20,000 bases of DNA from an uncultured virus (IMG/VR IMGVR_UViG_3300026549_002379) (IMGVR_UViG_3300026549_002379); one strand, 5' to 3'. Shown: positions 1 through 20,000, counted from the stretch's first letter. Notes: generated by a model not told the origin, from the letters alone. Numbers and translations are program-made.

Positions 1-452
1 TTCCTGCCCTTGAACGCCTTCTGCACCTCAGGCGCAGACTCGTCGACAAAGTACATACGCGTGTACTTCTTCGCACGGATGTTGTTCTCCATCAGAATCT
101 CGAACGCCAGCAACTGGCCTTCGCCCGTAGGGTCGTCATCGGTCGCGACACAAACCTCGTCGCATCCCTTGAACGTCTTCTTGATGTTCGCAATGGTGGC
201 TGCCGTGTCCGGCTTCTTGGAACGGCTCCAGTTGAACTGCGTAGGGTCCCATGGCAGATTCGCCAGGTCCCATGACTTGTACTGTGCCCGCAACGCCGCA
301 GGCACCTGCTTCTCGGGCGTGTCAAACTCATAGAGATGACCGCGTGCGGCGACAATCGTGTACTGTTCGCCGTTATACGTGCCCTGCATGCCACCCAGCG
401 CCTTGGCAAAATTTCGCGCCTGTGACGGCTTCTCTGCAAGAATTCCTATCAT
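1..452 (-). CDS. topB: Type IA DNA topoisomerase (TopoIII/TopB-like), N-terminal TOPRIM part, running off the window edge
   Basis: Not in the ORF track. Manual translation from ATG at 452 gives MIGILAEKPSQARNFAKALGG...IVAARGHLYEF...VCVATDDDPTGEGQLLAFEIL...RMYFVDES, with TOPRIM motifs AEKPS, GHL and ATDxDxxGEG. RBS GAAAGGAG lies just upstream. Confidence 0.9.
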   Translation of the reverse strand, partial: MIGILAEKPSQARNFAKALGGMQGTYNGEQYTIVAARGHLYEFDTPEKQVPAALRAQYKSWDLANLPWDPTQFNWSRSKKPDTAATIANIKKTFKGCDEVCVATDDDPTGEGQLLAFEILMENNIRAKKYTRMYFVDESAPEVQKAFKGR

Positions 453-514
453 ATGAAATCTCCTTTCGGGCACAGCCTTTTATCTCAGAGGCGTGCCGTC
501 TCATATTCGTGTCA

Positions 515-1328: not shown

Positions 1329-1646
1329 TCATACCTCGCCATCCTCATGCTCCAACAGATAGTTGTCGCCACGGGTCAGACCGAGCAGGCTGTCGAATCC
1401 GCTCACCGTCACGTCCTCCAGGCTCCTGACATTGCTCGAAAGCACAGTGACCGCGTCTATCAGCTGATTCAGCCTCGCCACCTCCGCCGTCGGGAGGTCA
1501 TAATCGCCGTTCTCGCGCCCTATCTGGCGCTCCAGCGCCTCCTGCATGTATTCGTTCGCTGACAAACCACGGCGCTTCGCCCAGTACTGGAGCCTCTGGT
1601 AATCGTCCTCAGAGAGCCTCAGCGTCATTCTGTGCCCTTCTGCCAT
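1329..1646 (-). CDS. Ribbon-helix-helix (CopG/Arc-like) protein with a C-terminal coiled-coil extension
   Basis: RMTLRLSEDDYQRLQYWAKRRGLSANEYMQEALER fits the RHH pattern. RBS AGGAGG. Overlaps the upstream RHH gene. Confidence 0.75.
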   Translation of the reverse strand: MAEGHRMTLRLSEDDYQRLQYWAKRRGLSANEYMQEALERQIGRENGDYDLPTAEVARLNQLIDAVTVLSSNVRSLEDVTVSGFDSLLGLTRGDNYLLEHEDGEV

Positions 1647-1816
1647 GCCGTATCAGCCTCCTTCCTGTTCGCGTCGACCCATTCGTGAATCAGCGCCGCG
1701 ACGGTCATGCCGCGCTCGGCAGCCATGACCTTCAGCGCCGTCTTGTCATCCACGGACAGTGATATCTGCATCGTTGTACGCCTCTTTCCGGCGCACACGT
1801 CATTCGTATCCGTCAT
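1625..1816 (-). CDS. Small ribbon-helix-helix DNA-binding protein (63 aa)
   Basis: TTMQISLSVDDKTALKVMAAERGMTVAALIHEWV fits the RHH pattern. Start moved to ATG 1816 because RBS GAAAGGAG precedes it. Confidence 0.75.
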   Translation of the reverse strand: MTDTNDVCAGKRRTTMQISLSVDDKTALKVMAAERGMTVAALIHEWVDANRKEADTAWQKGTE

Positions 1817-1832
1817 CCGCGCATCTCCTTTC

Positions 1833-1876
1833 TTATCCATTTATCCAATTATACATAATATTACGCCGGAAATCAA
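1833..1876 (-). promoter_or_regulatory. Sigma70 promoter of the RHH operon with tandem TTATCCA repeats at the start site (candidate operator)
   Basis: TTGATT (1876-1871), 17 bp, TATAAT (1853-1848). Direct repeats TTATCCA at 1833-1839 and 1841-1847. Confidence 0.7.
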
Positions 1877-2054: not shown

Positions 2055-3044
2055 TCAATTTTCAGACGCATCGCCCGACTCATCGCCGGACTTATCGTCC
2101 GACACACTGCCGGACGTGCTCACGGCATCAATCTGTGCCTTACGAGTCGCGTCAACAGCCTTCGCCCAGGCATTGTACGCCCGCTCATCGTCCTTGTCGA
2201 CATAGGTTCCGCTGTCATAGTAATACGCGGCATCGGGGGCGGAGACAAGCACGAACCGCATCAGCGCCCCGCCGTTCGGACGGTTGCACGTCGACATCAT
2301 CAGAATCCGCGTATTCTTGTCGGGCGTGTCGCCGACCCTGTACCTGGCATTCGCGGCCACATGCTGAATCATCTCGCCGTACTTATCGGAACCCAACTCG
2401 TACGGGATGTCATAGATTTCGTCCGACTCCCAGGCATCCAGCCCGGCCCACACGCGCCAGCGCTCGGAATGGTCCGGATAATAGATATAAACGTACGGAT
2501 AGTCGGACGCTCCCTGCACCGTACCCCAGCGCGTAGGCAGATTCGAGAACTGCCACTCGCCATTATAGCTGTTCATACGATGCCCGAGAATCAGAAGCCT
2601 TGCATCGTCCGGCAAAGAGCCGTCCTCGTTCTTCGGCTCGGCCGGCACCAGAAAGGCCCCACAGCCGTTATAGGTCTTGTCCAAGCCCTTCAGGTTATAG
2701 AAATACTGGTTCACCGTGCGCTCCTGCATCACGGGCGCGTCAATCTTCGTTCCCGGAACGTACATCCAACGCGTAGCATCGGCGTTCTCTGCAATGAGCG
2801 AATTGAAGTCAATGCGCCTGAGCAGGTTCTCATCAATGCCGAAGCGCTCGGCATCATCCTTGGCCGGCTCCTGCACGACCTCCTGCACGACCTCCTGTGC
2901 CACGTCCGACACCTCGTCATCCGCGTCCTTCTTCTCCGACGCGTCATGGCCGACGTACCACACACCGTACGTCATAGCCAAAACGGCCGCTATTGCAAGA
3001 ACGACGCCAAGCACGCGCCGACCCACCAATCCTTTCCTGTTCAT
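2055..3044 (-). CDS. srtB: Class B sortase
   Basis: N-terminal TM helix. IDFNSLIAENADATRWMYVPGTKIDAPVMQ is typical of SrtB. Catalytic His (ILGHRM), Cys (MMSTC, equivalent to LSTC) and Arg (MRFVLV) are present. RBS AAAGGAGG. Confidence 0.88.
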   Translation of the reverse strand: MNRKGLVGRRVLGVVLAIAAVLAMTYGVWYVGHDASEKKDADDEVSDVAQEVVQEVVQEPAKDDAERFGIDENLLRRIDFNSLIAENADATRWMYVPGTKIDAPVMQERTVNQYFYNLKGLDKTYNGCGAFLVPAEPKNEDGSLPDDARLLILGHRMNSYNGEWQFSNLPTRWGTVQGASDYPYVYIYYPDHSERWRVWAGLDAWESDEIYDIPYELGSDKYGEMIQHVAANARYRVGDTPDKNTRILMMSTCNRPNGGALMRFVLVSAPDAAYYYDSGTYVDKDDERAYNAWAKAVDATRKAQIDAVSTSGSVSDDKSGDESGDASEN

Positions 3045-3177: not shown

Positions 3178-6100
3178 TTAGCCGCGAGCCTGCTGACGCT
3201 TACGTACGTAGTACGTGATAGCGCCTGCAAGAGCCGCAAGCATTGCGATTGCGACCATGATACCGGCATTGCCGATACCCGTCTGCAGGTTGACGTGAGT
3301 CGTAGTAGGCGGAGTCTTGGACTCTTCCTTGACCGTCACGGTCTGACCCTCGTCATTGACATCCTCATGCTTGCCAACCAGAGTGCCGTTTGCGGAGTAG
3401 ACATACTCGTAAGCGACAACCTTGGCACCGTTTGCCATGTTGGACGTATCCAGCGTGAACGTCATCTCGACGTCACCCGTTGTGGCCTCCGGCGTGAACT
3501 CGGTCTCGGCAGTCACAGGGTTTCCATTGGAATCCTTGATGGCCTTGCCCTCGCCGTCAACCAGGGTGCCCTTCACGGTGTACTTCTCGCCCACATAGAG
3601 GTTCTCGTAGTGGACGGAGTCGACAACACTGACCTTATCGGCCTTCTGGATGTCCTTGGACTTCTTGTCCGCGCCAGTAAGGGTCGTACCGACCTTCATC
3701 TTGTGCACGGACTGGGACTCGTCGTTGATGTCAGCATGGGTTGCAATCTTGACACCGTCCTCAGACAGGTCTTCGAACGCAACGACAGTCTGGCCGTCAA
3801 GCGCACCGGCCTCGATTTCGAAGTCGAACGGAACATCGACCGTGCCATTGGCCTCCTTCGGAGTGAAAGTGACAGTCGCCGCAACCGGCTTGCCATCCTT
3901 ACCCTTCAGAATCGTGGCATCCTCGGTCGTATCGTCCTTCTTGGCATCGGCATCGTCAGCCTTCGTCACATCAGCGCCCTCGTCCTTCTTAGCGTCGGAC
4001 TCAGTTGCCTTATCGGTCGAAGCAGCCTCAGCCTTTGCATCGGAATCCGTGGCCTTCGCGTCGGACTTGTCATCGGACTTAGCCTCAGACTTATCATCAG
4101 CCTTTGCATCGGAATCCGTGGCCTTCGCGTCGTCCTTCTTGCCATCAGACGCTGCCGTCTTCTGAACATGAAGCGTACCAGTCAGCGTATACTCCTTGCC
4201 AGGAGTCAGGCCTTCGTATGCAACAGTATCGACAAGCTCGACGTGAGTCGTCTCAGACATCGCATGCGTCTTGGTCGTCTTGTCCAGAGCAGTCGTCTGA
4301 ACGTCGACGAAGCTTACCGTCTGGTCCTTATCCGTGATGTCAGAGTGAGTGGCAATCGTACGGTCGCCCTCCTTGACAGTCTCGAATGCGACAACGCTAT
4401 GACCAGCGAGTCCAGCAGCATTGAACGTGAACGTCACGTCAACCGTGCCGGTCGTCTTCTCAGGCGTGAACTCGGCAGTCGCCGTAACAGCCTTTCCGTC
4501 GGCATCCTTCAGGGCACCGCCGTCAACGATGTTGCCATCCTTGTCGACGTCCTGCAGATGAAGCTCGCCACTCACGGTGTACTTCTTGCCAACCTCAAGG
4601 TTCTCATAGGCGATGGTATCGGTCAGAACGACCGTCTCGTCCTTTTTCTCAGTCTTCTCAGACTTCGAATCGGACGCCGTATCCTTCGCCGAATCAGACT
4701 TCGTCTCAGTCGTGCTGTCGGACTTGACTTCCTCAGCAACCTTGCTATCGGACTTGACGTCCTCAGTTGCGATGCTGTCAGCCTTTACGGACTCGTCGGA
4801 AGCCTTGGCATCAGCCGAAGCGTCATCCTTCTTGTCCTTCGAGGCATCATAGGAAGCCTGCGTCACATGCGTACCGTTCTCGGCAACCATCGTGGTGCCA
4901 ATCTTCGGAACGTAGACGCTCTGGCCCTCGTCCGTGATATCGGCATGAACGGCCAGCGTCTTGTCCTCACGGGACAGGTCCTCGAATGCGACGATGGTCT
5001 GTCCACCAAGGGCAGAAGCATCGAACGTGAACTCGAGATTGACCTTCATGTCAGCCTTGTCGGCCTTGAAAGTCGTAGATGCGACAACGTCCTTGCCATC
5101 GGCATCCTTCAGAGCGCCAAGGTCCTTGCCGTCCTTGTCGCGAAGATGAAGCGCACCGCTTACCTTGTACTCCTTGCCAACAACCAGGTTCGTAGCGTCA
5201 ACAGTGTCAACGACGGTCTGATTCTTGTCTGCGGCGACAATCTTGCCACCGCTGGCCTTATCGGTAGCAGTCGTTCCGACCTTCGGGAAGGTCACGGTCT
5301 GTCCCTCGTCGTTGATATCGTTATGCGTTGCAAACTCAACGTTGTCAGACGTCAGAGACTCGAACGCAACGACGGTCTTGCCTGCGACGTCAACGCCGGA
5401 GAACTCGAACACAACGTCAGCCTTGCCAGAAGACTTTGAAGGAGCAAACGTGGTCGTGGCAGTAATCGGATTGCCATCGGCATCCTTGACAGCCTCGCCA
5501 GTCTCCTTGTCCATCAAAGTGGCAGTCAGCGTATAGTTCTTGCCCTTCTCGACACCGCTGTAGTCAACGGTATCGGTCAGCTTGATGGTCTTGGCAGCCG
5601 CATTGGCCTCATGCTCGACATCGCCGGTGAACGTCGTACCGATACGAGGAATCGTAACGGTCTGGTCCTCGTCCGTCAGGTCCTTATGGTCGACAATCTC
5701 ATCGCCATTCTGCTCAAGAGACTCGAACGCAACAAGCTTGTTAGTACCGACCTTGGACATGTCGACGTTCTCGAACACGACATCCGTCTTGCCGGTCATA
5801 TTCGAAGCAGTGAACTCAGACTCGGCCGTTGCGACAACGCCCTTGTCGTTGCCATCGTCATCGACAGCATGCAGCTCGCCCTTCAGCGTGTACTTCTCGT
5901 CCTGGGACAGGCCGTTGTAGGAAACGGTATCCGTCAGGTTGACAGTTCCGACAGAAGGAACGGACTTACCGGTATCAGCGGAAAGCTCGGTGCCAATCGT
6001 GATGGTCTTGTCGTCAATCGTGCCGTAGTCGAGGTCAATGCCCTCGCCGTTCGGATTTCCGTACTTATGCAGAGTCACAGTGAACTGGACGAGGTGATGA

Positions 6101-9100
6101 CCCTTGTTCGTGTCAGATGCCAGCTCGGTCACAGTGTACGTATCGTAAGGGAACGCGCGCAGGTCATCATTGACCTTGACGTTGCGACCATTTACATCAT
6201 AGGACTTGCCGTCCTCAGCCCACTTCGTCATGTCAGAAGACATGCCCGTGAACCACGTACCGGCCTCGGAATCGAGCTTGCTCGAGTCGACGACCTTGTA
6301 GTCACCGTCTGCGTCCTTCTGGATTGCACCGTTCGTATTAGGAGAATCCGGGTCGTTCGCATTGGTGTTCTGCGTATGAGCGTTCCAAGAGGAACCCCAG
6401 GTACCATTCTCATCCGTAACGATGACATGGGTCTCGCCAGTCGTATTGGACGTCACCTTGAAGGCAACCTTGTCCATGCGCTCCATGGAGTCCTCATCCT
6501 TCTTCTTGAAGGACCAGTCCTCACGAGACACCTGGTTGGCAACGACATCGTCCTCGTCGAGCAGGTCGACATAACCATCGTGCGTATGCTGGGTCAGCGT
6601 CACCGTCCAGCTCTTGGACGTATCGTCGTACAGATAACCAGTGCCGGACTTAATCTCACGAACCTCGTAGGTGCCATAAGGAAGCACCTTGCCGCTATCG
6701 GCATAGCACTTGCCATCATGCCACTCCGTGGCCATGGTCAGAACGCTCTCACCAGGCTTGTACGTAACGCCATTGACCTTGACATCATTCGCGGAACGGT
6801 TGATGACATCGAAGACAGCACCATCAAGGTGTGCCTCGCCAAGCTGGATGTACTGCTTGGTCTCACGGTCGACCTTGCCGACACGCAGGCCACCACGCCA
6901 GATGTCGTTCGCGTTCCACTTGTTCGCATCAGAGTCATAGCTCTTCAACTGACCGTCCTCGGTAATCTGGAACGTATCGGACCAACCCGCATTAAGATGC
7001 GAATCGTTGGCCGAACCGTCAGTTGCCGAATTGACCTCGCGAATCTCATACGTGCCGTACTCAAGCGTCTTATCGTTGTCCGTATCGACAACGTACTTGG
7101 AGCCATCCCACTTCACGTTGTCAGTCTTGGCAACGTAAGCCTTGAGATTGTCATCGTACTTCGTAGTAATAGTCGTCACGACATCGCCGACAGCGACGTC
7201 CTTGCCGTCATACTTCACCTTGTTGTCAGAGCGGTTGATGATTTCGTACTTGACATCGGCAAGAGAACCATCGCCCTGGTCACGAGATGCGTTCCAGTCC
7301 TTCTCGGCCTTGGTCACAAGCACACCGCCGCGCCAAACCTTATCAATGTAAGAACCAACAGCGTCGGCAGTCGTCTTTGCAGAAGGCCATGTTGCAATCT
7401 GGTGCTGTTCAGCCTCACCATTGCTATCGGCATCCGTCAATGTAAACGCCTGCGGGTCACCAGAAACAGCCACGCCAGAGGGCGCATTGACTTCAGTAAT
7501 CACTACAGTGCCAAGAGGAATAGTATTCTTCATGCCAGTGCCATCATGATACGGCCAAGTACCGGAAACTGGCGTCGCCGCACCGAACAGCAAAAAACCG
7601 TCATCATCCGTCGCAAACACAGCAGATGCCTTCGGAGAACCACTGGCCTGGGCAGCTGCCACAGAATCATACACATCACTATAGTAATCTACACGGAACT
7701 GCACGCCCGAGAGCTTGACATCGCCACGCATCGTGCCAGCCTTGTCTTCGCCATCCAGAGCCTTCTGAACCATAATGCCCATAGGGTCCTTGGTTGCAGG
7801 CTCAGCGAACTGACCGTCCAGCGTAACCTTGGAATGACCACCACTCGTCGCCTCCACGGATGCCACAGCAGGGTTCGTCGTATAACCACAATTACCGGAC
7901 TTGATTTCCTTAAGATAGTAAGTGCCTTCCTCAAGAGGGCCAACCTCGTTCGTCACGCCAGTATTGTTCTGAACCGTCAGGATATCCACGCGATTAGTGC
8001 ACTCGGCATCCTTGTAAACGCCGTACTGCGCACCGGTCATGTCATAGGCCGAGTTGCCGTTCGTATAGGAAGAATCCTCAGGAACCTTCACAGCGGACAG
8101 ATATCCACCAGCCTGCTTCCACGTGACAGTGAACAGACCGACACCGGCTTGCGTATTCATGGTCGGAGATACGATGGCAATCGTCATCGTATGATTAGCC
8201 ATATCGACATCAAGCACACGAACGTCGATGTCCAAGTCATCGGGATTAGAATGATTCTCGCCATACGAAATATGGGCACAGTACAGACCGACCGTTTGCG
8301 CCGGAATCTGGATGGTGTTGCCATCCACCGTCACGGTCTGGGCCTTGATGTGAGAGACACGCTCAACGAAGCCCCACGTAGTATCATCTGTCCACAACTC
8401 TTCCGTACTGATGCCCGCACCGCTAAGAACGGCCCTGGCAAGCGTATCAGGGTTACCGTTATTGGCTGCATGCACATTATAAGTGGCGCCTTCATCGCCA
8501 ACATAATAGTTACGGCTGCCAATCTTGAATGTCATGCCAGCCTGCGGCGCATTGGAAAACGTCCAGGTGCCGCCATACGACGGTGCCGTGTCGGCCTTCG
8601 CCGTGAACGAGAACAAGTTGCGAACAGACTTCATGAAGCCATTGCTCATCTTCACGGAAACAGAATCGACATCCACAGGTGACATGGCGATACTCAGAAC
8701 ACCAGTCGCTTCGTTATACGACCACATACTGGTGTCATGGCCATAGGAAACGCCATTCACAACGACAGAATCAATCGTATCGGACGAAATGCTCTTGCGG
8801 GCCTCGTCATCATTAGCGAGCGTGACATTCGTCACAAGCGCAGACGTCGATGCCTCGGCCGTACCTGAATCAGCGACATCGCCCTTCACGCCACCCTTGT
8901 CGACGCTCACCGCGACATCGGACGTAGCCGAGTCGCCGGTCACATAAAGCAGCTCGACGCGAACGGCGTTCTTGCCATCCTTCGTACGTGCAACAGGCAC
9001 GTACACAAGGCCGCTTTCCTTGTCATAGACGACATCGTCATACACGGTGCCGGACGTATCGTTGCGGCCTGCAACGACATCGGTGACATTCTTGCCATTG

Positions 9101-9852
9101 GACATGTCACCGACCTTGCCGACATAGTACTTGGCATCATCAGACGTCTTGTACAGAACATGCACGCCATAGGCGCTGTTGACAAGCGCAGTCCACTGGT
9201 CGGACACGCCGTCACCATCATTGTCGGCCCACAGGTCATCGACCGTCTTGCCACTGAACTTGCCGCCATCGACGACAAGCGAGTTCGTGGTCACGACATC
9301 GACGGCAGAGAGCGACTTGCCGCTGCCGACATACTTGGAATCCATATGCGACCTGATGTAAGACTCGACGTCCCCATCATTGGCAGACTCCTTATCAGAA
9401 TCGACAGACACGGCAGAACTCTTGCTGCCACCGTCTTCCACGAAATACCCGGTCACGACGACGTCCTCCGTGGGCTTGAAAGTCACCTTTCCGTCGGAGT
9501 CGACATCAATGGACTTCGGGTCGCCGGAAGCACCGACAACAGACACCGAACTTGCGACATAACCGTCATCCGGCTTTGCAGCGACAGTCACATCGTCACC
9601 GGACTTCACGTCAAGAGACGTTCCGTCCTTGCCATCGAAAGACAGACTTCCGTGCTCGCTGTCAGCGAGGACCACAGCGAATGTCTGTGTGTCATCAGGC
9701 TTAGTCGTCTCTGCTGCGAACGCAGTCGTTACGCCGCCGGACGCCACGGTCATCGCCGCAGTTGCCGCCGTCATAACAAGTGCAGAAGCGCGGCGCCAGA
9801 CGCCAAGCAATGACTTCTTCAGATGGTTTTCACCATTGCTCTTGTCATTCAT
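3178..9852 (-). CDS. Giant sortase-anchored adhesin (~2,224 aa): signal peptide, InlB-B-repeat-like domain, variable region, ~5 Cna-B/SpaA-like domains, 6 VaFE/T-Q ester domains, LQTG anchor
   Basis: RBS AGGAGG favours ATG 9852. Signal peptide ends AFA|AE. GTYYLKE/GTYEIRE/GTYEVRE Cna-B-like motifs. Six VA(F/Y)E...HxDxxDxxQ repeats. C-terminus is NLQTG, a hydrophobic helix and RKRQQARG. Confidence 0.9.
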   Translation of the reverse strand: MNDKSNGENHLKKSLLGVWRRASALVMTAATAAMTVASGGVTTAFAAETTKPDDTQTFAVVLADSEHGSLSFDGKDGTSLDVKSGDDVTVAAKPDDGYVASSVSVVGASGDPKSIDVDSDGKVTFKPTEDVVVTGYFVEDGGSKSSAVSVDSDKESANDGDVESYIRSHMDSKYVGSGKSLSAVDVVTTNSLVVDGGKFSGKTVDDLWADNDGDGVSDQWTALVNSAYGVHVLYKTSDDAKYYVGKVGDMSNGKNVTDVVAGRNDTSGTVYDDVVYDKESGLVYVPVARTKDGKNAVRVELLYVTGDSATSDVAVSVDKGGVKGDVADSGTAEASTSALVTNVTLANDDEARKSISSDTIDSVVVNGVSYGHDTSMWSYNEATGVLSIAMSPVDVDSVSVKMSNGFMKSVRNLFSFTAKADTAPSYGGTWTFSNAPQAGMTFKIGSRNYYVGDEGATYNVHAANNGNPDTLARAVLSGAGISTEELWTDDTTWGFVERVSHIKAQTVTVDGNTIQIPAQTVGLYCAHISYGENHSNPDDLDIDVRVLDVDMANHTMTIAIVSPTMNTQAGVGLFTVTWKQAGGYLSAVKVPEDSSYTNGNSAYDMTGAQYGVYKDAECTNRVDILTVQNNTGVTNEVGPLEEGTYYLKEIKSGNCGYTTNPAVASVEATSGGHSKVTLDGQFAEPATKDPMGIMVQKALDGEDKAGTMRGDVKLSGVQFRVDYYSDVYDSVAAAQASGSPKASAVFATDDDGFLLFGAATPVSGTWPYHDGTGMKNTIPLGTVVITEVNAPSGVAVSGDPQAFTLTDADSNGEAEQHQIATWPSAKTTADAVGSYIDKVWRGGVLVTKAEKDWNASRDQGDGSLADVKYEIINRSDNKVKYDGKDVAVGDVVTTITTKYDDNLKAYVAKTDNVKWDGSKYVVDTDNDKTLEYGTYEIREVNSATDGSANDSHLNAGWSDTFQITEDGQLKSYDSDANKWNANDIWRGGLRVGKVDRETKQYIQLGEAHLDGAVFDVINRSANDVKVNGVTYKPGESVLTMATEWHDGKCYADSGKVLPYGTYEVREIKSGTGYLYDDTSKSWTVTLTQHTHDGYVDLLDEDDVVANQVSREDWSFKKKDEDSMERMDKVAFKVTSNTTGETHVIVTDENGTWGSSWNAHTQNTNANDPDSPNTNGAIQKDADGDYKVVDSSKLDSEAGTWFTGMSSDMTKWAEDGKSYDVNGRNVKVNDDLRAFPYDTYTVTELASDTNKGHHLVQFTVTLHKYGNPNGEGIDLDYGTIDDKTITIGTELSADTGKSVPSVGTVNLTDTVSYNGLSQDEKYTLKGELHAVDDDGNDKGVVATAESEFTASNMTGKTDVVFENVDMSKVGTNKLVAFESLEQNGDEIVDHKDLTDEDQTVTIPRIGTTFTGDVEHEANAAAKTIKLTDTVDYSGVEKGKNYTLTATLMDKETGEAVKDADGNPITATTTFAPSKSSGKADVVFEFSGVDVAGKTVVAFESLTSDNVEFATHNDINDEGQTVTFPKVGTTATDKASGGKIVAADKNQTVVDTVDATNLVVGKEYKVSGALHLRDKDGKDLGALKDADGKDVVASTTFKADKADMKVNLEFTFDASALGGQTIVAFEDLSREDKTLAVHADITDEGQSVYVPKIGTTMVAENGTHVTQASYDASKDKKDDASADAKASDESVKADSIATEDVKSDSKVAEEVKSDSTTETKSDSAKDTASDSKSEKTEKKDETVVLTDTIAYENLEVGKKYTVSGELHLQDVDKDGNIVDGGALKDADGKAVTATAEFTPEKTTGTVDVTFTFNAAGLAGHSVVAFETVKEGDRTIATHSDITDKDQTVSFVDVQTTALDKTTKTHAMSETTHVELVDTVAYEGLTPGKEYTLTGTLHVQKTAASDGKKDDAKATDSDAKADDKSEAKSDDKSDAKATDSDAKAEAASTDKATESDAKKDEGADVTKADDADAKKDDTTEDATILKGKDGKPVAATVTFTPKEANGTVDVPFDFEIEAGALDGQTVVAFEDLSEDGVKIATHADINDESQSVHKMKVGTTLTGADKKSKDIQKADKVSVVDSVHYENLYVGEKYTVKGTLVDGEGKAIKDSNGNPVTAETEFTPEATTGDVEMTFTLDTSNMANGAKVVAYEYVYSANGTLVGKHEDVNDEGQTVTVKEESKTPPTTTHVNLQTGIGNAGIMVAIAMLAALAGAITYYVRKRQQARG
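3330..6010 (-). repeat. Six tandem VaFE (T-Q ester bond) Ig-like domains
   Basis: HKDLTDEDQ, HNDINDEGQ, HADITDEGQ, HSDITDKDQ, HADINDESQ and HEDVNDEGQ, each domain opening with an (I/V)(G/Q)T strand. Boundaries approximate. Confidence 0.85.
4028..4132. repeat. Exact 36-bp direct repeat with a 69-bp period inside the adhesin
   Basis: TCAGCCTTTGCATCGGAATCCGTGGCCTTCGCGTCG at 4028-4063 and 4097-4132, encoding DAKATDSDAKA twice. Confidence 0.9.
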
Positions 9853-9994
9853 AAACAACATCCTCCTTTTCTTACTTTGTTTGTTAAACATATATGTTTA
9901 CATGAAATTATTGTACGTCTCCGTTCCTATGCCGCCACTCGCTGCTAACAGCATAAAAGAACACAAAGCACGTACAACGCATCATGCTGAAACT

Positions 9995-10612: not shown

Positions 10613-10987
10613 CGTGCGGGGACATGCGGGGCGCATGTCGGAAGAAATGGCGAAGCCAGTTAGGCAGCTTGCGCTGCTGATACAAGACTTCAATCTTGGG
10701 ATGACCAGGTCATCCCGGATGAAAACATGAGAGAAATCGAAACCTCTCGAAGATAAACGGGCCAACAAACTCAATAAAGATAAAGGGCCGTCAGCTCACT
10801 TCACAGGAATCGCGAAAATCAACTCTCTCTCTCAGGAACTGCAAAGACGTAATGCATGCCCATGAGCATACGGCGCAAAAACCACATTATGAATATCAGG
10901 CGCGACAGATTCGCTCACGGCATCACGACGTCAACGCAGACCATTGCATTACTGCCAATTAAAATCACAAAACAGGAGGAAATCATC

Positions 10988-11422
10988 ATGGCAAATCTCA
11001 ACAACTTCGGTATCGTTTCTGGTCGTCTTACCAAGGACCCTACGGTCTTCACTAACAGCGACGGCTCCAAGAAGATTATGGTCACTGTCGCAGCCAAGAA
11101 CAACTACAAGGGCAAGGACGGCAAGCGTGGCACTCAGTTCGTAGACCTTCAGGCCTTCGTCTCTGCCAAGTCCGCTAAGTCTCCGTTCGACTACCTCGAG
11201 AAGGGCGACAAGGTCAAGTTCGGCTTCAGCGTACGCAACAACAACTACACTGACAAGCAGGGCGTCGCTCACTACGAGCAGATTCTCTGGATTGAGGACA
11301 CCGAGCTCGAAGAGACCAAGGCTTCCAAGGCCGCACGCGCAGCCCGCGAGCCTCAGGCAGAGGCCGCAGCAGCAGGCGTCGTTCCTGCAGCTGACGACGA
11401 CAGCCAGCCGTTCGACGAGTAA
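10988..11422 (+). CDS. ssb: Single-stranded DNA-binding protein
   Basis: RBS AGGAGG before ATG 10988. OB-fold NNFGIVSGRLTKDP...TQFVDLQAF...YLEKGDKV...NNYTDKQG. Acidic tail DDDSQPFDE. Confidence 0.92.
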   Translation: MANLNNFGIVSGRLTKDPTVFTNSDGSKKIMVTVAAKNNYKGKDGKRGTQFVDLQAFVSAKSAKSPFDYLEKGDKVKFGFSVRNNNYTDKQGVAHYEQILWIEDTELEETKASKAARAAREPQAEAAAAGVVPAADDDSQPFDE

Positions 11423-11491: not shown

Positions 11492-11944
11492 CTAATTCAA
11501 CTTGTCTATGCCGTAATCAATCATCTCACGGACTTCCTCGTTCGTACGGTTCTTGCCCTTCTTGCGATTGCAACGCCAGCAGAGCGTCTGCAGGTTGCTC
11601 TCGTCATCGCCGGAGCCACCCTTAGCCACCGGTACGATATGGTCGACTTCCAACAGCAGATAGTCGCCCAGCCCCGGCATCAGGGAATCCACGTACCCCT
11701 TGGAGATACCGCATATCTGGCATGTGTAGTTGTCACGTTCCAGGACATGCTGCTTCATCGCCTTCGTGACGTAGCGGCGCCTTGCGGTCTCCCGCTTCTG
11801 CTCCTTCTCCTCCTCAACGTGCCTCGACAAGTCGCTGTAACGCTCCTCGGACTCGTCCGCCTGACGGCGGCTGCGTCTCGCCCGTATGAACAGGACGACG
11901 GCCAGAACCGCCAGGACGACGAGCAGGAACAGCAACGCCATCAT
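11492..11944 (-). CDS. HNH endonuclease with an N-terminal transmembrane anchor
   Basis: Hydrophobic N-terminus ALLFLLVVLAVLAVVLFI then RARRSRR. VLERDNYTCQICG...LEVDHIVPVAKGG...NLQTLCWRCNRKKG is an McrA-type Zn-HNH. ATGA overlap with the upstream gene. Confidence 0.88.
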   Translation of the reverse strand: MMALLFLLVVLAVLAVVLFIRARRSRRQADESEERYSDLSRHVEEEKEQKRETARRRYVTKAMKQHVLERDNYTCQICGISKGYVDSLMPGLGDYLLLEVDHIVPVAKGGSGDDESNLQTLCWRCNRKKGKNRTNEEVREMIDYGIDKLN

Positions 11945-12681
11945 CGCGTGCCCTTCCTGTCACCGTACCGGGTGACCGGCATGGTCGACGGGTCATCATA
12001 ACAAGACGTGTACGCCCCGTCGGGAACGGTACGCACGATACCCATGTTGTCCGCCTGCATGGCAATGACCTCAGGGCTCATGCCAACGCACTCGGAGGCG
12101 CAGTCCGTAACAGAGGCATGCTCCACGAGCAGACGATACAGAGCGTGCATCTTCATCATCTTGCCCACGGCAGTGCGTTGCACCGTGCCGTCGGGGCGGA
12201 CGCGCTGATAATGCTCCTCCGCCACCATGCCATAGTACACATGCATCATCATGTTGTACATCAGCCCGGCATCCTCGCCATACGCATCAGCAAGACGGCC
12301 AATCTCCCGCACGCACTCCTCACGCACGGAGTTATCAGCCATTGCGTACACGGCCCTGATATCAGCGAAGACACGGTCGTCCCCATGACACAGGGCAATC
12401 GCGGCAAGCCTCGAGAAATAGTACTCGTCCTTCGGGTACGCCATGCTGACGTTGCCCTCCGGTGACCACTGCAGCACCGCCGCGGCCCAGTTGTCATAAC
12501 GACCCTGGCAGAACGCAATCGCCCTGTCCAGACCGTCATCGCCCGCCATGTGCCTCAACGCACGCATGTCGCGCAGATACGGACGGTCATCCCACGGGAG
12601 GAAGGAAAGGCCGGAAGCCATGACTTCCGACCTGACAGAATCCTTCCAGGCATCTGCCATGAGCCTTCCCACGGCATCCAT
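11941..12681 (-). CDS. Hypothetical helical protein (246 aa), translationally coupled to parM and the HNH gene
   Basis: TAATG overlap with the parM stop and ATGA overlap with the HNH start. Distinctive segment YYGMVAEE...VGKMMKMHALYRLL. Function unknown. Confidence 0.75.
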   Translation of the reverse strand: MDAVGRLMADAWKDSVRSEVMASGLSFLPWDDRPYLRDMRALRHMAGDDGLDRAIAFCQGRYDNWAAAVLQWSPEGNVSMAYPKDEYYFSRLAAIALCHGDDRVFADIRAVYAMADNSVREECVREIGRLADAYGEDAGLMYNMMMHVYYGMVAEEHYQRVRPDGTVQRTAVGKMMKMHALYRLLVEHASVTDCASECVGMSPEVIAMQADNMGIVRTVPDGAYTSCYDDPSTMPVTRYGDRKGTR

Positions 12682-14352: not shown

Positions 14353-14458
14353 ATGGGATACTTTTTGGTCATTTTTGTAACCATTTTCGAACCAGTTTGT
14401 ATCCCTACCCAATCAAAAACCATTTACGAACCATTTTAGAACCATAAAATATCCCTAC
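14353..14458. repeat. Centromere-like (parC) array of 11-bp direct repeats
   Basis: GTCATTTTTGT/AACCATTTTCG/AACCAGTTTGT (14368-14400) and AACCATTTACG/AACCATTTTAG/AACCATAAAAT (14418-14450). Each block ends in TATCCCTAC, and an inverted GGGATA lies at 14355-14360. Confidence 0.75.
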
Positions 14459-14522: not shown

Positions 14523-14741
14523 ATGAGCAGAAAGAAAAAGAAATCCGTGCCGGTACAAACGCCAAAACGGCACCGCACGCACGGCAAAATCCATGTCGGA
14601 ACCATCACATCGGAACAGCTCCGAAAGATGAACAGACCCCGCCAGCTTCCTACGAGCGGGTTCGGCATCCACGGCGACACAAAGTACAACCGCCGTCGCG
14701 CCAAAGAGGAAACCCGCCGAATCCTCGAGGACGAGGACTGA
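14523..14741 (+). CDS. Small basic hypothetical protein (72 aa)
   Basis: RBS AGGAG before ATG 14523. K/R/H-rich with GFGIHGDTKYNRRRAK. Followed directly by a terminator. Confidence 0.7.
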   Translation: MSRKKKKSVPVQTPKRHRTHGKIHVGTITSEQLRKMNRPRQLPTSGFGIHGDTKYNRRRAKEETRRILEDED

Positions 14742-14780
14742 AAGAAAAGGCAGACCCTAACAGGTCTGCCGACTTTTTTT
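14742..14780. terminator. Bidirectional intrinsic terminator
   Basis: A-rich run, GGCAGACC-ctaaca-GGTCTGCC (14749-14770), then a T7 run, between convergent genes. Confidence 0.85.
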
Positions 14781-15513: not shown

Positions 15514-15527
15514 AAAACCTCCTGACA

Positions 15528-15558
15528 CAGAAAGGGAACCCGACGTGCGGGTTCCCCT
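15528..15558 (-). terminator. Hairpin, probable terminator closing the sec operon
   Basis: Minus strand GGGAACCCG-cacgt-CGGGTTCCC followed by TTTCTG, just after the HTH stop. The U-tract is short. Confidence 0.6.
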
Positions 15559-15564
15559 GCCGTA

Positions 15565-15777
15565 CTATCTGTCATGCTTGCGCAGGAGCCGGCGCACCGT
15601 CGACGTCGAAAGGCCGACGTTCGCCGCGATGTCCTCTATCGAGTACCCCTGGTCAAGCATATCCTCTATCTGCGGCCATGCAGCATCGCTTGTGGACGGA
15701 CGTCCCGGAAGACGCCCGTGGGCACGCGCGCGTTCCATGCCCTCGCGAATTGCGTCAGACCTGCTCTTCTTGCCCAT
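15565..15777 (-). CDS. Stand-alone resolvase/invertase-type HTH protein (70 aa)
   Basis: SDAIREGMERARAHGRLPGRP...GYSIEDIAANVGLSTSTVRRLL matches the end of serine-recombinase helix E, the GRP arm and the HTH. No catalytic domain upstream. Confidence 0.75.
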   Translation of the reverse strand: MGKKSRSDAIREGMERARAHGRLPGRPSTSDAAWPQIEDMLDQGYSIEDIAANVGLSTSTVRRLLRKHDR

Positions 15778-15784
15778 CGGCAGC

Positions 15785-16027
15785 TCACACGAACAGACCG
15801 ACAAGCGACGTCACGCACCAGGACACCGCCCAGCATGTGATGCCAAGCCCCGCCGTGAACACGACGAACTCCAGCGTGGACGTCACGACGCGCTTCGGAC
15901 GTGCCCACACGACATGCATGCCATCTGCTCTCTTGCCGGAGAAGACCCGCATGAGCCTCTGACTGTTCTCGCGAGCCTCCCGTGCCTTCTCGGCACTGTC
16001 GTCACGCTTCCTCTGTGTCAACGCCAT
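15785..16027 (-). CDS. secE: Divergent single-TM SecE-like subunit
   Basis: HVVWARPKRVVTSTLEFVVFTAGLGITCWAVSW aligns with the SecE hinge and TM (KVTWPxxxE...T...V). 80 aa, strong RBS AAGGAGGT, 1 bp after the secY stop. Confidence 0.68.
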   Translation of the reverse strand: MALTQRKRDDSAEKAREARENSQRLMRVFSGKRADGMHVVWARPKRVVTSTLEFVVFTAGLGITCWAVSWCVTSLVGLFV

Positions 16028-16028
16028 A

Positions 16029-17333
16029 TCAGGCCACCTCCTTCGTTCCGAAAAGATTGTACTTCCTGCTGCGATGGCGCGTCATACCGACGTATGCCAT
16101 ACGCGTCTGCCAGAACGCACCGACCATGATGACCATGGACGTGCCCGCGAACTGGACACCGGTGATGCCAAGCAGACTCAACGCCAGGTCAGGCAGGACC
16201 GCCACGGCCACAAGCATCAGAGCACTGATGATGGCCAGCTTGCGGCGGCGCTTCTCCAGATAGACCTCCGTATCGTGACCAGGAGCCACGCCGACGATGA
16301 CGTCACCACGCTCACGCATGCGGTTCGCGACCTCCGCCGACGAGAACGTCAGACGGGACGCGAAGAACGAGAATCCGACGACGAACAGCACGTACACAGC
16401 CAGAGAAACCCAGCCCTGCCAGGTGCCGCTGTACATGACATACGTCTGCGTATAGGCACTCAACTTGCCGAACCAGCTGTCAGCCGACAGGCCAAGCGTG
16501 ACGACCAGGCTGGGCATCATGAACAGCGCCGAGGCGTACACGATAGGAAGGACGCTCGAGATGCCAAGCGGCATAGGAAGCGTGCCCTCCGCGTTCATGA
16601 CGCTCAGGGGCTTACGCGTCTGCTGAATCGGAACCTCGAGACGGCTTTCCTGCATGATGACCGCAACAACGACGGCCACCAGCACGATGACGACGCCCCA
16701 GCCAAGACCCTGTGCGGCCGACCAGTTGGTGCTCACCATCTGACCGGGCAGAGCCGTGGCGATGTTTGCGGCAAGGATTGCCGTGGGACCGTTGCCAAGG
16801 CCGTGGTCCTGCACACGCTGTGCCAGCACGGCAACGACGAGGGTGCCGAGAAACCACTCTGCGACGGGAATGACGGCCATCCAGCCGACATCCTTGTACA
16901 GCAGGGAGGAATGCGACGTGGCCATAATGGCAATGCCCATGACCAGCGTAATCATGCATGCCAGACCCATCGAGAGCTGCTCGTAGCGCCTGCGTCCCAT
17001 CTCGCCCAGACGGCGAATCTCCTCGAAGCGCGGGAACGCGATGCTAATCAGCTGCATCAGGATGCCCGCCATGATGATACTCGTGACGGCGAAGCCACCG
17101 ACCGCAAGCTGCGACAGGCCTCCGCCCGACAGGGCATCCGTGAAGTTCAGAATGCTCGCACTGCCAAGCAGCGACTTGACAATCGACGCATTCACCCCGT
17201 ACACGGGGATATGGCTCAGGACGAGCGACGCCAGCACGACGAATGCCGTGTACGCCACGCGACGGCGAACGCTTGCGTCGCGCCGTGCGTTGACCAGTGC
17301 CACCGCGCCCATCTTCTTTCTCTTGTCTCTCAT
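16029..17333 (-). CDS. secY: Preprotein translocase SecY, divergent accessory paralogue
   Basis: About 10 TM segments. SHIPVYGVN, LSGGGLSQ, GEMGRRR, HGLGNG, VLPIVYASA, GVAPGHDTEVYL and FAGTSMVIMVG are all recognisable SecY blocks. Confidence 0.92.
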   Translation of the reverse strand: MRDKRKKMGAVALVNARRDASVRRRVAYTAFVVLASLVLSHIPVYGVNASIVKSLLGSASILNFTDALSGGGLSQLAVGGFAVTSIIMAGILMQLISIAFPRFEEIRRLGEMGRRRYEQLSMGLACMITLVMGIAIMATSHSSLLYKDVGWMAVIPVAEWFLGTLVVAVLAQRVQDHGLGNGPTAILAANIATALPGQMVSTNWSAAQGLGWGVVIVLVAVVVAVIMQESRLEVPIQQTRKPLSVMNAEGTLPMPLGISSVLPIVYASALFMMPSLVVTLGLSADSWFGKLSAYTQTYVMYSGTWQGWVSLAVYVLFVVGFSFFASRLTFSSAEVANRMRERGDVIVGVAPGHDTEVYLEKRRRKLAIISALMLVAVAVLPDLALSLLGITGVQFAGTSMVIMVGAFWQTRMAYVGMTRHRSRKYNLFGTKEVA

Positions 17334-17336
17334 ATC

Positions 17337-19781
17337 TTATACCACCATGTCCTTTCCGCTCTTGAGCTTGACGTCCATGCCATCGACGGTCGTCTCTGCC
17401 TTACGGTCAGGACGCTGTGCGAAGAACGTGAACACTGCCGCCGCATAGACCATGTCGAGCATGCGCCCGTACAGGTCATAGGCCTCGATGCCATAGGCAG
17501 CCTTCGGGTCCATCTGGCCATAGCCGGAGTATCCGACCGCGTTGCGGCAGAACTCCAGGGCACGGAGCTGCTCAGCCCATGCCGAGTCAATCGCGACGAG
17601 AAGGCAGCGACGCGTGTACGACTTCCTGATGTCGTCATCCGTGAACTCCATGGCCTTCGCGGCCTTCTCGGCCTCAAGCACCAGCATGTCGTCCGCGCCA
17701 TTGTAAAGCCTGCCCTTCTCATCGCAGAGCCTATGCTCAAACTTAATGCCGGTCAGCGCCTCGAAGGCACCGCCAAGCTCGTCAGGCTTCACAGTACGGG
17801 CGATGTGCTTGATGGCATGAGCCATGGCATAGCGCATTTGCTCCGTGACGTCCTCCTTCGCAAGGATGGCCCTGCGCTCCGCATAGATGCGCTCACGCTG
17901 AGCGTCATTAATATCATCGTATGCAAGCGTATCCCGACGCATCGCCCAGTTGTCCAGGGCGACGCGCTTCTGAACCGTGCGAATCGCACGCATGACGCTA
18001 CGAAGCACCACGCGTCCGGTCTCGTCCGTGGCTCCCGCCATCCGGACGCCCTTCGCAAAACGCTGCGCCCCGTAGAGACGCATGACGCGGTCTTCCATCG
18101 AGATATAGAAAGCGCTGGTGCCAGGGTCTCCCTGACGCCCGGAACGACCGCGGAGCTGATTGTCGATACGCTCGTCCTCGTGCTTCTCACAACCGATAAC
18201 CAGAAGGCCACCGGCCTTGCGTGCCTCGTCGTCCAGGACGATGTCGGTACCACGACCGGCCATGTTCGTGGCCACTGTCACCGTGCCGTGAATGCCGGCC
18301 TTCGCGACCACCTCCGCCTCGTGCTCGTCCTGCTTTGCTGACAGGACCTGATGCTCGATGCCGGCACGCCGCAGGTATCCGGAGACGACCTCCGACTCCT
18401 CGACGGACGCCGTGCCCACCAGCACGGGGCGGCCCTTCTCCAGAGCCTCCTGGATACGCTTGACGACGGCCTCGTGCTTATGAGCAGCCGTATCGTAGAG
18501 ACGGTCGGGCTCATCGACGCGAATCATCGGACGGTTCGTCGGAATGACGCGCACGCGAAGCCTGTAGGTATCCCAAAGCTCGGAATGCTCCGTCCATGCC
18601 GTACCGGTCATACCGGAGAGCACCTCGTACTTGCGGAAGAAGTTCTGGTAGGACGTGGTCCCTATCGTCTCGTTCACCGAAGACACGGCCACGTGCTCCT
18701 TCGCCTCGATGGCCTGGTGCAGACCGTCGGAATACTGACGGCCCTCCATGGTACGGCCCGTGTTCTGGTCGACCAGAAGCACCTTGCCGCCACGAACGAT
18801 ATAGTCCTTGTCCCTGCGGAACAGGGCGTGCGCCTGCAACGACTGCTCCACGGCATGCTGAATAGAACGATTCTTCGCGTCGGCGTAGTTCTCGATGCCG
18901 AGTGCTGCCTCGATTTTGGCGATGCCCTGCGACGTCAGGATGACGTTGCGCTCACGCTCATGCACGATGTAATCACCCGTCTCGACGCGCTCGACGCCAA
19001 TCATGGCCTCCGCGCGGTTGAACGGACGGGACTCAGTGCCCTTCTCGAGCTTCGACACCACGGCGTCGATGCGCTCGCAGAGCAGGGACACGTCCTTGCC
19101 CATGCCGGAGATAATCAGCGGCGTCTTCGCCTCGTCAATCAGAATCGAATCCGCCTCATCGACGATGGCGTACACAAGGCCCCTCTGCACCATCTGCCTG
19201 GCATCGACGACCATGTTGTCACGCAGCCAGTCGAAGCCGAGCTCCGTGTTCGACACGTACGTGATATCGCACGCATAGGCGTCGCGACGCGTCACGTTGC
19301 CCATGCCGGGCAGCACGCATCCGACCGTGAGCCCCAGGAAACGGGCAATCGACCCGATGTTCTCCGAGTCACGCTCGGCCAGGTAAGGGTTCACCGTGAC
19401 GACATGGGAACCGCGCCCCGTCAGGGCATGAAGAATGCTCGGCATGGCCGCCATAAGGCTCTTGCCCTCGCCGGTCTTCGCCTCCGCAATGGCGCCCTCG
19501 TGCAGCGCGACGGCACCGATAATCTGCACGTCATACGGACTGAGTCCGATGGCGCGCTTCGCAGCCACGCACACCGTGGCGTAAACGTCCACGAGCTCCA
19601 AATCGAGGGCCTTCCCCTCGTCGGACGCGGACTTGATTCTATCGGCAGATGCCTGGATGCGCGCACGGAGCTCGTCGTCGCCGAGGTCCGACATCTCGTC
19701 CCTCTTCGAAGCGACCCTCTCGGCAATCTTCCGTGCATGCGCGAGCCAGGCTGTCTGCCTATTGACCTTCATCATAGGCAT
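17337..19781 (-). CDS. secA: Preprotein translocase ATPase SecA, accessory paralogue (~814 aa)
   Basis: AEAKTGEGKS, HVVTVNPYLAERD, IVDEADSILIDEAKTPLIISG, GLHQAIEAKE, GMTGTA, ATNMAGRGTDI, RIDNQLRGRSGRQGDPG. RBS GAGGAG before ATG 19781. No C-terminal Cys-rich Zn motif. Confidence 0.97.
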   Translation of the reverse strand: MPMMKVNRQTAWLAHARKIAERVASKRDEMSDLGDDELRARIQASADRIKSASDEGKALDLELVDVYATVCVAAKRAIGLSPYDVQIIGAVALHEGAIAEAKTGEGKSLMAAMPSILHALTGRGSHVVTVNPYLAERDSENIGSIARFLGLTVGCVLPGMGNVTRRDAYACDITYVSNTELGFDWLRDNMVVDARQMVQRGLVYAIVDEADSILIDEAKTPLIISGMGKDVSLLCERIDAVVSKLEKGTESRPFNRAEAMIGVERVETGDYIVHERERNVILTSQGIAKIEAALGIENYADAKNRSIQHAVEQSLQAHALFRRDKDYIVRGGKVLLVDQNTGRTMEGRQYSDGLHQAIEAKEHVAVSSVNETIGTTSYQNFFRKYEVLSGMTGTAWTEHSELWDTYRLRVRVIPTNRPMIRVDEPDRLYDTAAHKHEAVVKRIQEALEKGRPVLVGTASVEESEVVSGYLRRAGIEHQVLSAKQDEHEAEVVAKAGIHGTVTVATNMAGRGTDIVLDDEARKAGGLLVIGCEKHEDERIDNQLRGRSGRQGDPGTSAFYISMEDRVMRLYGAQRFAKGVRMAGATDETGRVVLRSVMRAIRTVQKRVALDNWAMRRDTLAYDDINDAQRERIYAERRAILAKEDVTEQMRYAMAHAIKHIARTVKPDELGGAFEALTGIKFEHRLCDEKGRLYNGADDMLVLEAEKAAKAMEFTDDDIRKSYTRRCLLVAIDSAWAEQLRALEFCRNAVGYSGYGQMDPKAAYGIEAYDLYGRMLDMVYAAAVFTFFAQRPDRKAETTVDGMDVKLKSGKDMVV

Positions 19782-19823
19782 GTATCTCCTCTCTTGGTTC
19801 GTCAAAACAACCTTTATGCAATG

Positions 19824-19852
19824 ATTTTAACATCTTTTTGGAGCGATTGCAA
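19824..19852 (-). promoter_or_regulatory. Sigma70 promoter of the secA-secY-secE-HTH operon
   Basis: TTGCAA (19852-19847), 17 bp, TAAAAT (19829-19824), with a TGn extension. Confidence 0.7.
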
Positions 19853-19890: not shown

Positions 19891-20000
19891 AGGTGTATCG
19901 TACCGAAACACCATGGCCACCCCTTTAGCATACCTTACACGCATGACCCTTGGATGCCGGTGGCATCCCGGATGATGGCGTGAAGGTAGCTGGAAGGGTT

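Follow-up and report, generated by a model that had tools for sequence, protein, structure and literature searches.

Knowledge of extra Sec systems comes mainly from pathogens, in which those of the accessory Sec (aSec) and SecA2-only types determine the selection of adhesins and wall proteins delivered to the cell surface. The SecA2 of Clostridioides difficile, for instance, exports S-layer/CWB2 proteins. Complete aSec loci are found on two plasmids, pSSAP1 of Staphylococcus saprophyticus and NZ_CP117408.1 of Lactococcus lactis, and plasmids of Clostridium estertheticum carry a lone SecA2. The aSec locus of pSSAP1 adjoins a KxYKxGKxW protein, and neither the interval between its secY2 and secA2 nor the position immediately after them holds a secE-like gene. 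The L. lactis plasmid (L012) contains secA2, secY, asp1-3 and glycosyltransferase genes; its annotated secE stands apart, some 4 kb upstream and on the other strand. Here, we analysed a stretch of 20,000 nucleotides from a record filed as an uncultured virus (IMGVR_UViG_3300026549_002379; the whole stretch is referred to as the window), in which secA, secY, a secE-like gene and a gene for a helix-turn-helix (HTH) protein form one unit on a plasmid-like backbone. An earlier, sequence-only reading of the window had proposed a self-contained SecAYE set on a mobile element, and our results support this proposal. The same reading regarded the arrangement as unprecedented, which was overstated in view of the two aSec plasmids and of a 'third SecY-SecA system' on a megaplasmid of Limosilactobacillus reuteri LL7, to which PMC7446861 gives one sentence and one table column, with no analysis seen in the matching passages. 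Mobile Sec genes as such are not new; this plasmid SecAYE lineage, however, was not found described in the literature, and in full-text searches the nearest report was the brief mention of L. reuteri LL7.

Judging from its layout, the secA-secY-secE-like-HTH unit is an intact, co-transcribed operon (the coordinates of all features are collected in Table 1). The gaps between the four genes are 3, 1 and 7 bp, and the unit is bounded by a promoter-like site and a hairpin, just as the sequence-only reading had outlined. Four promoter-like sites were counted in the region against 1.3 expected, and the position of the site at 19852-19824, 43 bp ahead of the secA start, suggests that it functions as the promoter. 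The open reading frame (ORF) list starts secA at a TTG (19805), earlier than the ATG at 19781. With a folding energy of -25 kcal/mol (z = -2.87), the hairpin at 15527-15563 was matched by one of 200 shuffles; its U-tract is weak (UUUCUGUGU), and a simple terminator scan did not list this stem and gave a weaker one at 15534-15518 instead. The HTH protein matched HTH_38 (33.1 bits) and HTH_7 (31.7 bits) in Pfam as well as positions 138-203 of the 254 positions of phrog_125, a DNA invertase, and thus resembles, in sequence, the C-terminal DNA-binding domain of a resolvase or invertase. A scan of JGI metagenomes was the source of only three short operon loci, L004 (54% GC), L005 (34%) and L006 (46%), all of which keep the order of secA, secY and a small transmembrane (TM) gene. 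An HTH-like gene behind the small protein was present in L004 and absent from L005 and L006. In L006, a ParR-like gene, ParM, the single-strand DNA-binding protein (SSB) and the adhesin are also kept next to the operon.

The SecA protein showed all four SecA domains above the Pfam cut-offs (SecA_DEAD at 337.8 bits, SecA_PP_bind, P-loop_SecA and SecA_SW), and its Walker A, Walker B, TGTA and arginine-finger motifs were intact; GEGKS, DEADSILIDEAKTPLIISG, TNMAGRGTDI and LRGRSGRQGDPG were among the motifs read. It passed the NCBIfam housekeeping equivalog NF009538 (848.7; cut-off 814) and remained below two other housekeeping equivalogs, TIGR00963 (796.2; cut-off 800) and NF006630 (771.8; cut-off 862). 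It failed the SecA2 equivalog TIGR03714 (642.1; cut-off 930) and all the SecA2-only models, TIGR04397 (724.4; cut-off 1085), TIGR04221 (532.4; cut-off 725) and NF012136 (529.8; cut-off 1100). The zinc-binding C-terminal tail (CPCGSGKKYKxC[HC]G) was absent from SecA of the window, L005 and L006. This tail was found in five of seven housekeeping SecA references (Listeria, Escherichia coli, Vescimonas, Collinsella and Bacillus) and is not universal, being missing in the housekeeping SecA of Nocardia and L. curvatus; it was also missing in the SecA2 references sampled. In place of the zinc finger, the SecA proteins of the family share a distinctive conserved tail, ..DG.L.LKSGKD.EV (window 17337-17400). 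In a tree of 17 SecA rows, the three family rows stood on their own long stem (support 100/100), apart from the aSec SecA2, the Listeria/Bacillus SecA2, the C. estertheticum plasmid SecA2 and the L. reuteri plasmid SecA. Within secA, positions 18010-19343 of the window displayed depth spikes and many short, partly fitting contigs in all four runs, and their source was the conserved SecA motifs of other organisms.

The SecY protein contained the Pfam SecY domain (190.3 bits; cut-off 32.2) and scored below the housekeeping equivalog TIGR00967 (203.3 bits; cut-off 253.6); the SecY2 equivalogs TIGR02920 (93.4; cut-off 249.6) and NF009082 (96.0; cut-off 353) also failed. A profile search of 1.84 billion representatives separated 12 SecY clusters (296-567 bits) from the next one (256 bits), and the clade comprises about 12 clusters defined at 50% identity. 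Ten of these 12 family representatives fell below the housekeeping cut-off, in contrast to the next 18 ordinary SecYs, 16 of which passed. The near-identical SecY cluster had 33 members on contigs of up to 139 kb, the 139-kb one encoding the identical protein, and there were many further homologues at 46-49% identity; by our own count, 42 of the 120 listed homologues lie on contigs of 152-204 kb, and a group of 418-aa SecYs is carried by contigs of 150-204 kb. The family formed one clade of 23 rows in a tree of 75 SecY rows (Shimodaira-Hasegawa-like approximate likelihood ratio test, SH-aLRT, 96). In a more careful tree of 27 rows, its 12 rows were supported at 100/100 and nested among Clostridia-like SecYs, distant from the aSec SecY2 and from the plasmid-borne SecYs of Bifidobacterium longum and L. 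reuteri. No member or close relative of the lineage was found elsewhere: PLSDB gave nothing above 30% identity, at the DNA or protein level, with the window SecY or P0005; GenBank phages held no close relative; two scans of the GTDB representative genomes returned only an unrelated Dojkabacteria SecY at 23% identity; and a SecY profile search of IMG/VR found no family member. An Atlas look-up returned SecY clusters only, one of which was partly labelled Uroviricota (8 members with known phylum), a label that we treated as a probable error.

Plasmids of 34-57% GC carry the sec trio in unchanged order within one distinct clade, a maintained lineage on replicons of very different base composition. 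The sec genes are richer in GC than the flanking plasmid DNA by 4-7 points at three loci, namely the window (15565-19781; 61.7% versus 55.5%), L005 (43-3928; 36.2% versus 30.2%) and L006 (1-2416; 50.5% versus 43.8%). The 6-point excess of the operon over the rest of the window could be read as a mark of captured passenger genes, with no selected role and either neutral or decaying. However, since the same excess recurs in L005 and L006, it appears to be a property of the genes and gives no sign of recent capture. No frame is interrupted in the 33 near-identical members or in relatives of 45-50% identity; the ATPase motifs are intact, 82 columns of SecY have stayed invariant and the gene order persists across GC-shifted hosts, all of which makes the passenger explanation very improbable.

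The third gene encodes a protein of 80 amino acids (aa), which the sequence-only reading had called SecE-like. Its score against the SecE model TIGR00964 was 17.1 bits (E 0.0037; cut-off 27.55), and that against PF00584 was 13.4 bits (cut-off 22.7). The L005 homologue came closer (24.0 bits, E 2.6e-5, and 20.0 bits, respectively), also below both cut-offs, and the L004 and L006 homologues gave no match to either model individually. A small TM gene lies directly behind secY in all four loci. A family profile (A3) was built from nine sequences of four divergent lineages and compared with PDB sequences; the top eight matches were all SecE chains, the best being 3dl8_C (E 7.7e-5) and the other seven lying at E 0.06-0.22, and their alignments shared one register over a V-x-W-P motif and the TM helix. 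An hhalign comparison with four SecE proteins (Listeria, Bacillus, Collinsella and the L. lactis plasmid) gave a probability of 86% (E 4.8e-6) over residues 36-79. The AlphaFold2 (AF2) model of the 80-aa protein is a single long helix (residues 44-79) with a predicted local distance difference test score (pLDDT) of about 88-94. Searches with single proteins returned few homologues (one 94%-identical cluster for the 80-aa protein, and 30 proteins of 86-99% identity for the 72-aa protein of L005), so the SecE profile rests on four divergent lineages. Together, the TIGR00964 score, the PDB profile search and the hhalign result uphold the earlier assignment, and the 80-aa protein is probably a divergent SecE, predicted to clamp SecY.

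The locus resembles aSec in that a second SecA and SecY are encoded together, away from the housekeeping loci and possibly on a plasmid near a giant wall-anchored adhesin, and in that SecA lacks the zinc-finger tail. The window genes abut, with a SecE-like gene behind secY, whereas in aSec loci, including those of pSSAP1 and the L. lactis plasmid, asp genes separate secY2 from secA2 or follow them immediately. In line with the sequence-only reading, no asp, gtf or serine-rich substrate context was found in the 15.5 kb downstream of the window operon, and asp and gtf genes were also absent downstream in L005 and L006. No KxYKxGKxW or serine-rich-repeat substrate was in view; the sole giant protein is a T-Q ester/VaFE adhesin without the motif. 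That reading had further placed the locus apart from SecA2/SecY2. The failed equivalogs and the separate SecA and SecY clades agree with this; a distant sister relation is nevertheless left by approximately unbiased (AU) tests, in which joining the family to aSec was not rejected for SecA (log-likelihood difference 20.0, p = 0.054) or for SecY (difference 3.7, p = 0.36). The trees and AU tests used only two aSec references, on very long branches. The family might be a distant member or sister of aSec whose Asp/Gtf partners or glycosylated substrate lie outside the window, as aSec loci do occur on plasmids, the sampled SecA2 references share the loss of the zinc finger, and the window ends about 150 bp upstream of the promoter, with an ORF entering from beyond base 20000. 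We consider this relationship improbable, however, given the distance from the SecA2 and SecY2 cut-offs (642 versus 930 and 93-96 versus 250-353), the best trees, the lack of asp and gtf genes downstream, the abutting genes, and the absence of an adjoining secE-like gene on pSSAP1 and its separate, opposite-strand position on the L. lactis plasmid. Of the entering ORF (19937-20000, minus strand), 21 codons are visible, and its TAA lies about 85 bp before the promoter; contigs in two runs reach 0.7-1.0 kb further.

Further extra Sec loci were compared with the window. L. reuteri LL7 likewise carries an additional secA and secY together, without asp or gtf, on a megaplasmid of 179 kb (NZ_CP041677.1), where the sec genes are flanked by giant LPXTG/MucBP/BspA surface proteins. 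The locus encodes, in order, a 308-aa protein (annotated as secG), SecA, a hypothetical protein of 118 aa, SecY and a TM protein of 118 aa; a SecE-like gene was not recognised among them. Its origin is separate, as the LL7 SecA groups with the housekeeping SecA of Lactobacillaceae (94/93) and the LL7 SecY falls outside the family. The SecA2-only systems (Listeria, mycobacteria, the Bacillus anthracis type and C. difficile) are similar in that an additional SecA handles only some of the exported proteins; in contrast to the window, they have no partner SecY or SecE, and none of their NCBIfam models accepted the window SecA. Megaplasmids of B. longum (184-198 kb) share with the window the presence of a Sec channel gene on a gut megaplasmid; however, they carry a lone secY, with no matches for secA, and this SecY is 28% identical to that of the window and branches elsewhere. 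In B. longum NZ_CP065398.1 (198 kb; L001/L007), secY lies by a WhiB gene, downstream of type I-E cas genes and before TnpB.

The remainder of the window represents, on the strength of its gene content, a Gram-positive plasmid-like backbone (Table 1). This setting had been proposed earlier, and ParM with iterons, SSB, the NikA-like protein, the Toprim protein, the sortase and the adhesin bear it out. The ParM-like protein matched the phrog_691 partition protein (E 1.5e-25) and is 74% identical to the L006 copy; its score against the ParM equivalog NF010498 was so far below the cut-off (24.9 versus 417) that it is best described as a distant ParM-like protein. The locus combines the parts of type II (ParMRC) partition systems, namely an ATPase with an actin fold, a gene for a candidate adaptor upstream of it, and an array of iterated repeats as candidate centromere. 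The 160-aa protein had no family match in Pfam or NCBIfam, and its gene is kept beside ParM in L006 and in 21 of 26 related IMG/VR loci. By analogy with ParMRC loci, the iterons (ACCATTTnnGAACCA) at 14380-14458 are likely a parC-type centromere; further ACCATTTnnGAACCA repeats are present at 14585-14605. The distance of about 1.1 kb between the operon and the ParM module given by the sequence-only reading was accurate (1.15 kb from the HTH stop); that reading left out the gene for a 249-aa membrane protein that occupies this interval. The only match of this protein was a sub-threshold one in Pfam (PG_binding_4, 17.1 bits; cut-off 22.1), and the position of its gene is not conserved in L006.

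The adhesin contains seven TQ stretches (499 bits, Pfam), eight VaFE_rpt stretches (570.9 bits, NCBIfam) and one SpaA domain, and it ends in a sorting signal composed of NLQTG, a TM segment and RKRQQARG. We take the NLQTG motif to resemble the NVQTG-type signals cut by C. difficile SrtB. The sortase is 57% identical to the L029 copy, the NikA-like gene occurs in 12 of the 26 related loci, and the homologue of the truncated topoisomerase in one related record (G006) is a 719-aa protein with Toprim, Topoisom_bac and DUF3945. No relaxase was found within the window. Nine studies, mostly of bovine gut metagenomes, yielded 20 runs in which the window DNA was detected. Contigs of four other studies covered all 30 window bins at even depth and bridged the backbone-sec junction (X4 record 26, at 11449-16391, and X2 record 14, at 15246-16841, are two instances); an assembly chimera is contradicted by these contigs, and the linkage between backbone and operon is hence no assembly artefact. 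The carrier looks like a large plasmid, of at least 139 kb, from an uncultured Gram-positive rumen bacterium of Clostridia-like appearance.

Table 1. Positions of the sec operon and its neighbours in the window, and of the sec genes in the related record G006.
Sequence	Feature	Coordinates	Strand	Basis or remark
Window	Sigma-70-like promoter-like site	19824..19852	-	TTGCAA-17 nt-TAAAAT with upstream TG, 9/12 matches
Window	secA	17337..19781	-	814 aa, ATG behind GAGAGGAGA
Window	secY	16029..17333	-	434 aa, divergent member of a plasmid-linked SecY clade
Window	Probable divergent SecE	15785..16027	-	80-aa single-pass membrane protein
Window	HTH gene	15565..15777	-	70 aa, last gene of the unit
Window	GC-rich hairpin, likely terminator	15527..15563	-	Behind the HTH gene, 11-bp stem
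Window	249-aa protein with N-terminal TM segment	14779..15528	-	Own AGGAGG ribosome-binding site (Shine-Dalgarno)
Window	Candidate parC centromere	14380..14458	.	Iterated ACCATTTnnGAACCA repeats, 11-bp spacing, upstream of the 160-aa gene
Window	Candidate ParR-like adaptor, 160 aa	13930..14412	-	Position upstream of ParM
Window	ParM-like actin-fold partition ATPase, 409 aa	12681..13910	-	ALP_N 33.2 bits, MreB-like_C 35.2 bits
Window	DUF7004 protein	11941..12681	-	Pfam 73.9 bits
Window	Membrane-anchored HNH endonuclease	11492..11944	-	HNH 50.6 bits
Window	Single-strand DNA-binding protein	10856..11422	+	Pfam and PHROGs
Window	2237-aa surface adhesin	3178..9891	-	TQ, VaFE_rpt, SpaA, sorting signal
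Window	Class-B-like sortase, sub-threshold	2055..3044	-	TIGR03064 44.7 (cut-off 153.75)
Window	Two small ribbon-helix-helix proteins, one NikA-like	1329..1840	-	RHH_10 31.6 bits; NikA-like 20.5 bits (cut-off 27)
Window	Topoisomerase-III-like protein, N-terminal Toprim part, runs off the window	3..473	-	Toprim 43 bits
G006	secA	172266-174737		Housekeeping-like
G006	secY	4190-5458		Housekeeping-like

A search of IMG/VR with the ParM-like protein retrieved 26 records of 79-252 kb, most of them with direct terminal repeats, which share the ParR-like, ParM, SSB, adhesin, sortase, NikA and Toprim backbone in the same order. Only one of them, G006 (192.5 kb, 31% GC), carries secY, and it is also the only one with secA, from which it follows that the operon is accessory cargo. 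The two G006 genes are not adjacent, lying about 22 kb apart. The G006 SecA is 51% identical to Vescimonas SecA and 45% identical to that of the window, and the G006 SecY is 38% identical to Bacillus and Listeria SecY and 24% identical to the window SecY. Sec genes on these backbones are therefore patchy cargo gained more than once, and G006 represents a separate acquisition. Further content of G006 includes a MobL relaxase (174 bits), TopoIII, HU, ParM, a D5-type primase, NrdD and ThyA, together with five CWB2 wall proteins, a pilin with its sortase, two giant proteins and the defence-type genes GmrSD, SocA/Panacea and a methylase. A type IV secretion system ATPase was not recognised in G006 by Pfam, and no capsid, portal or tail protein was found by Pfam (150 of 176 ORFs) or by PHROGs (66 ORFs, nearly all Pfam-negative, E <= 1e-12). 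Although G006 (L056-L065) has direct terminal repeats and is catalogued as a virus, its content is that of a plasmid, and the 'viral' backbone records accordingly look like plasmids. A prophage or phage-plasmid identity found no support in the Pfam and PHROGs content of the window and G006. One 808-aa LAGLIDADG protein of G006 (L058:15141-17567) matched the PHROGs terminase large subunit, a DnaC-like loader and a primase, and is probably an intein-bearing P-loop ATPase.

The same three core components, domains and catalytic motifs are present in housekeeping SecA-SecYEG, and SecA still passes one of its equivalogs. The window genes, however, form one plasmid operon, whereas the housekeeping genes lie in the spc operon or beside nusG; moreover, SecY and SecE are below the equivalog cut-offs, no SecG is in view and the C-terminal tail of SecA is absent. 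Many 'plasmid' records in PLSDB hold true housekeeping sec genes, and the operon might in principle be the only secA, secY and secE of its organism, moved to a secondary replicon (a chromid). In contrast to the housekeeping records of PLSDB, no ribosomal-protein, nusG or prfB context accompanies the operon; the sub-threshold SecY, the spread of the lineage over 34-57% GC with plasmid synteny and the lack of sec genes in nearly all backbone relatives likewise speak against a chromid, which is highly improbable.

It is also conceivable that the operon acts less selectively, either boosting secretion in general or standing in for the host SecAYE, serving every substrate without a client of its own and buffering the burden of a plasmid of 140-200 kb rich in surface proteins. 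The passed SecA equivalog (848.7 versus 814), the nesting of the SecY clade among ordinary Clostridia-like SecYs, the absence of Asp-type specificity factors in Pfam and NCBIfam matches, and the separate gain of housekeeping-like SecA and SecY by G006, with its five CWB2 wall and two giant proteins, are all compatible with such a role. Nevertheless, SecY has diverged strongly (203 versus 253.6 bits), SecA has lost its C-terminal tail and the stem branches are long, all of which looks like specialisation away from housekeeping, and we regard a mere booster as rather unlikely. The patchy distribution of the operon on a mobile backbone, the independent gain of Sec genes by G006 and the defence-type genes of that relative suggest still another role, that of a conflict module guarding the plasmid-bearing cell against phages, bacteriocins or contact-dependent toxins that use or block the host SecY/SecA, or altering host secretion for the benefit of the plasmid. 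The operon lies, however, by a partition locus and outside any defence island, and no inhibitor or immunity gene was recognised nearby by Pfam, NCBIfam or PHROGs; there is little chance that it serves this purpose.

The explanation that we favour is that the SecA, SecY and SecE-like products would assemble into an additional SecYE channel, encoded by the plasmid and powered by a SecA of its own, which would work beside the chromosomal Sec system of the host. Its task may be the export or insertion of plasmid-encoded envelope proteins, the candidate clients being the giant ester-bond adhesin, anchored by sortase, and further proteins of the cell surface or of plasmid transfer, and the HTH protein may regulate the unit. 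The plasmid would in this way gain secretion capacity of its own and compatibility in any host that it enters. By analogy, the aSec locus of pSSAP1 beside its KxYKxGKxW protein may be taken as a precedent for an extra Sec system serving big adhesins. We rate the chances of a dedicated or preferential export role for the operon as about even. A more far-reaching proposal is that the portable, self-contained SecA-SecY-SecE set constitutes a third kind of accessory Sec, long kept on megaplasmids of gut and rumen Clostridia (34-57% GC) and exporting the giant adhesins and wall proteins of the plasmid by a route that bypasses the host channel and needs neither Asp chaperones nor glycosylation; this we put forward only tentatively.

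Several observations weigh against a private translocon of this kind. Both secA and secY are absent from 25 of the 26 backbone relatives, some of which have the adhesin and sortase, indicating that this type of element does not need one. In particular, G001 (complete, 117 kb) has no sec genes and yet encodes the adhesin (47% identity) and the sortase (58%), so these proteins do not depend on it. The N-terminal signal region of the adhesin is unusually long in the window (about 60 aa) and ordinary in L006, and no common special targeting signal is therefore evident. The SecE call is based on sub-threshold and profile-level scores, with two of four family members having no SecE match individually, and the SecY-SecE clamp contact is a prediction from sequence. 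No SecG, signal peptidase or YidC was in view within the window, and the DNA upstream of secA, where another ORF enters, is unseen beyond about 150 bp. Finally, coexistence with the chromosomal Sec system of the host is assumed, and the export clients stand as candidates only, chosen as a best guess.

The whole Sec core, comprising motor, channel and probable clamp, is carried in a single operon by megaplasmids that are abundant in gut and rumen. Should this operon function as proposed, a mobile element entering a new host would arrive with a general export route of its own, which would bear on plasmid host range, on the export of giant adhesins and on the mobility of 'informational' housekeeping machines. 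For biochemical work, the operon is moreover a naturally occurring minimal SecAYE set that lacks SecG.

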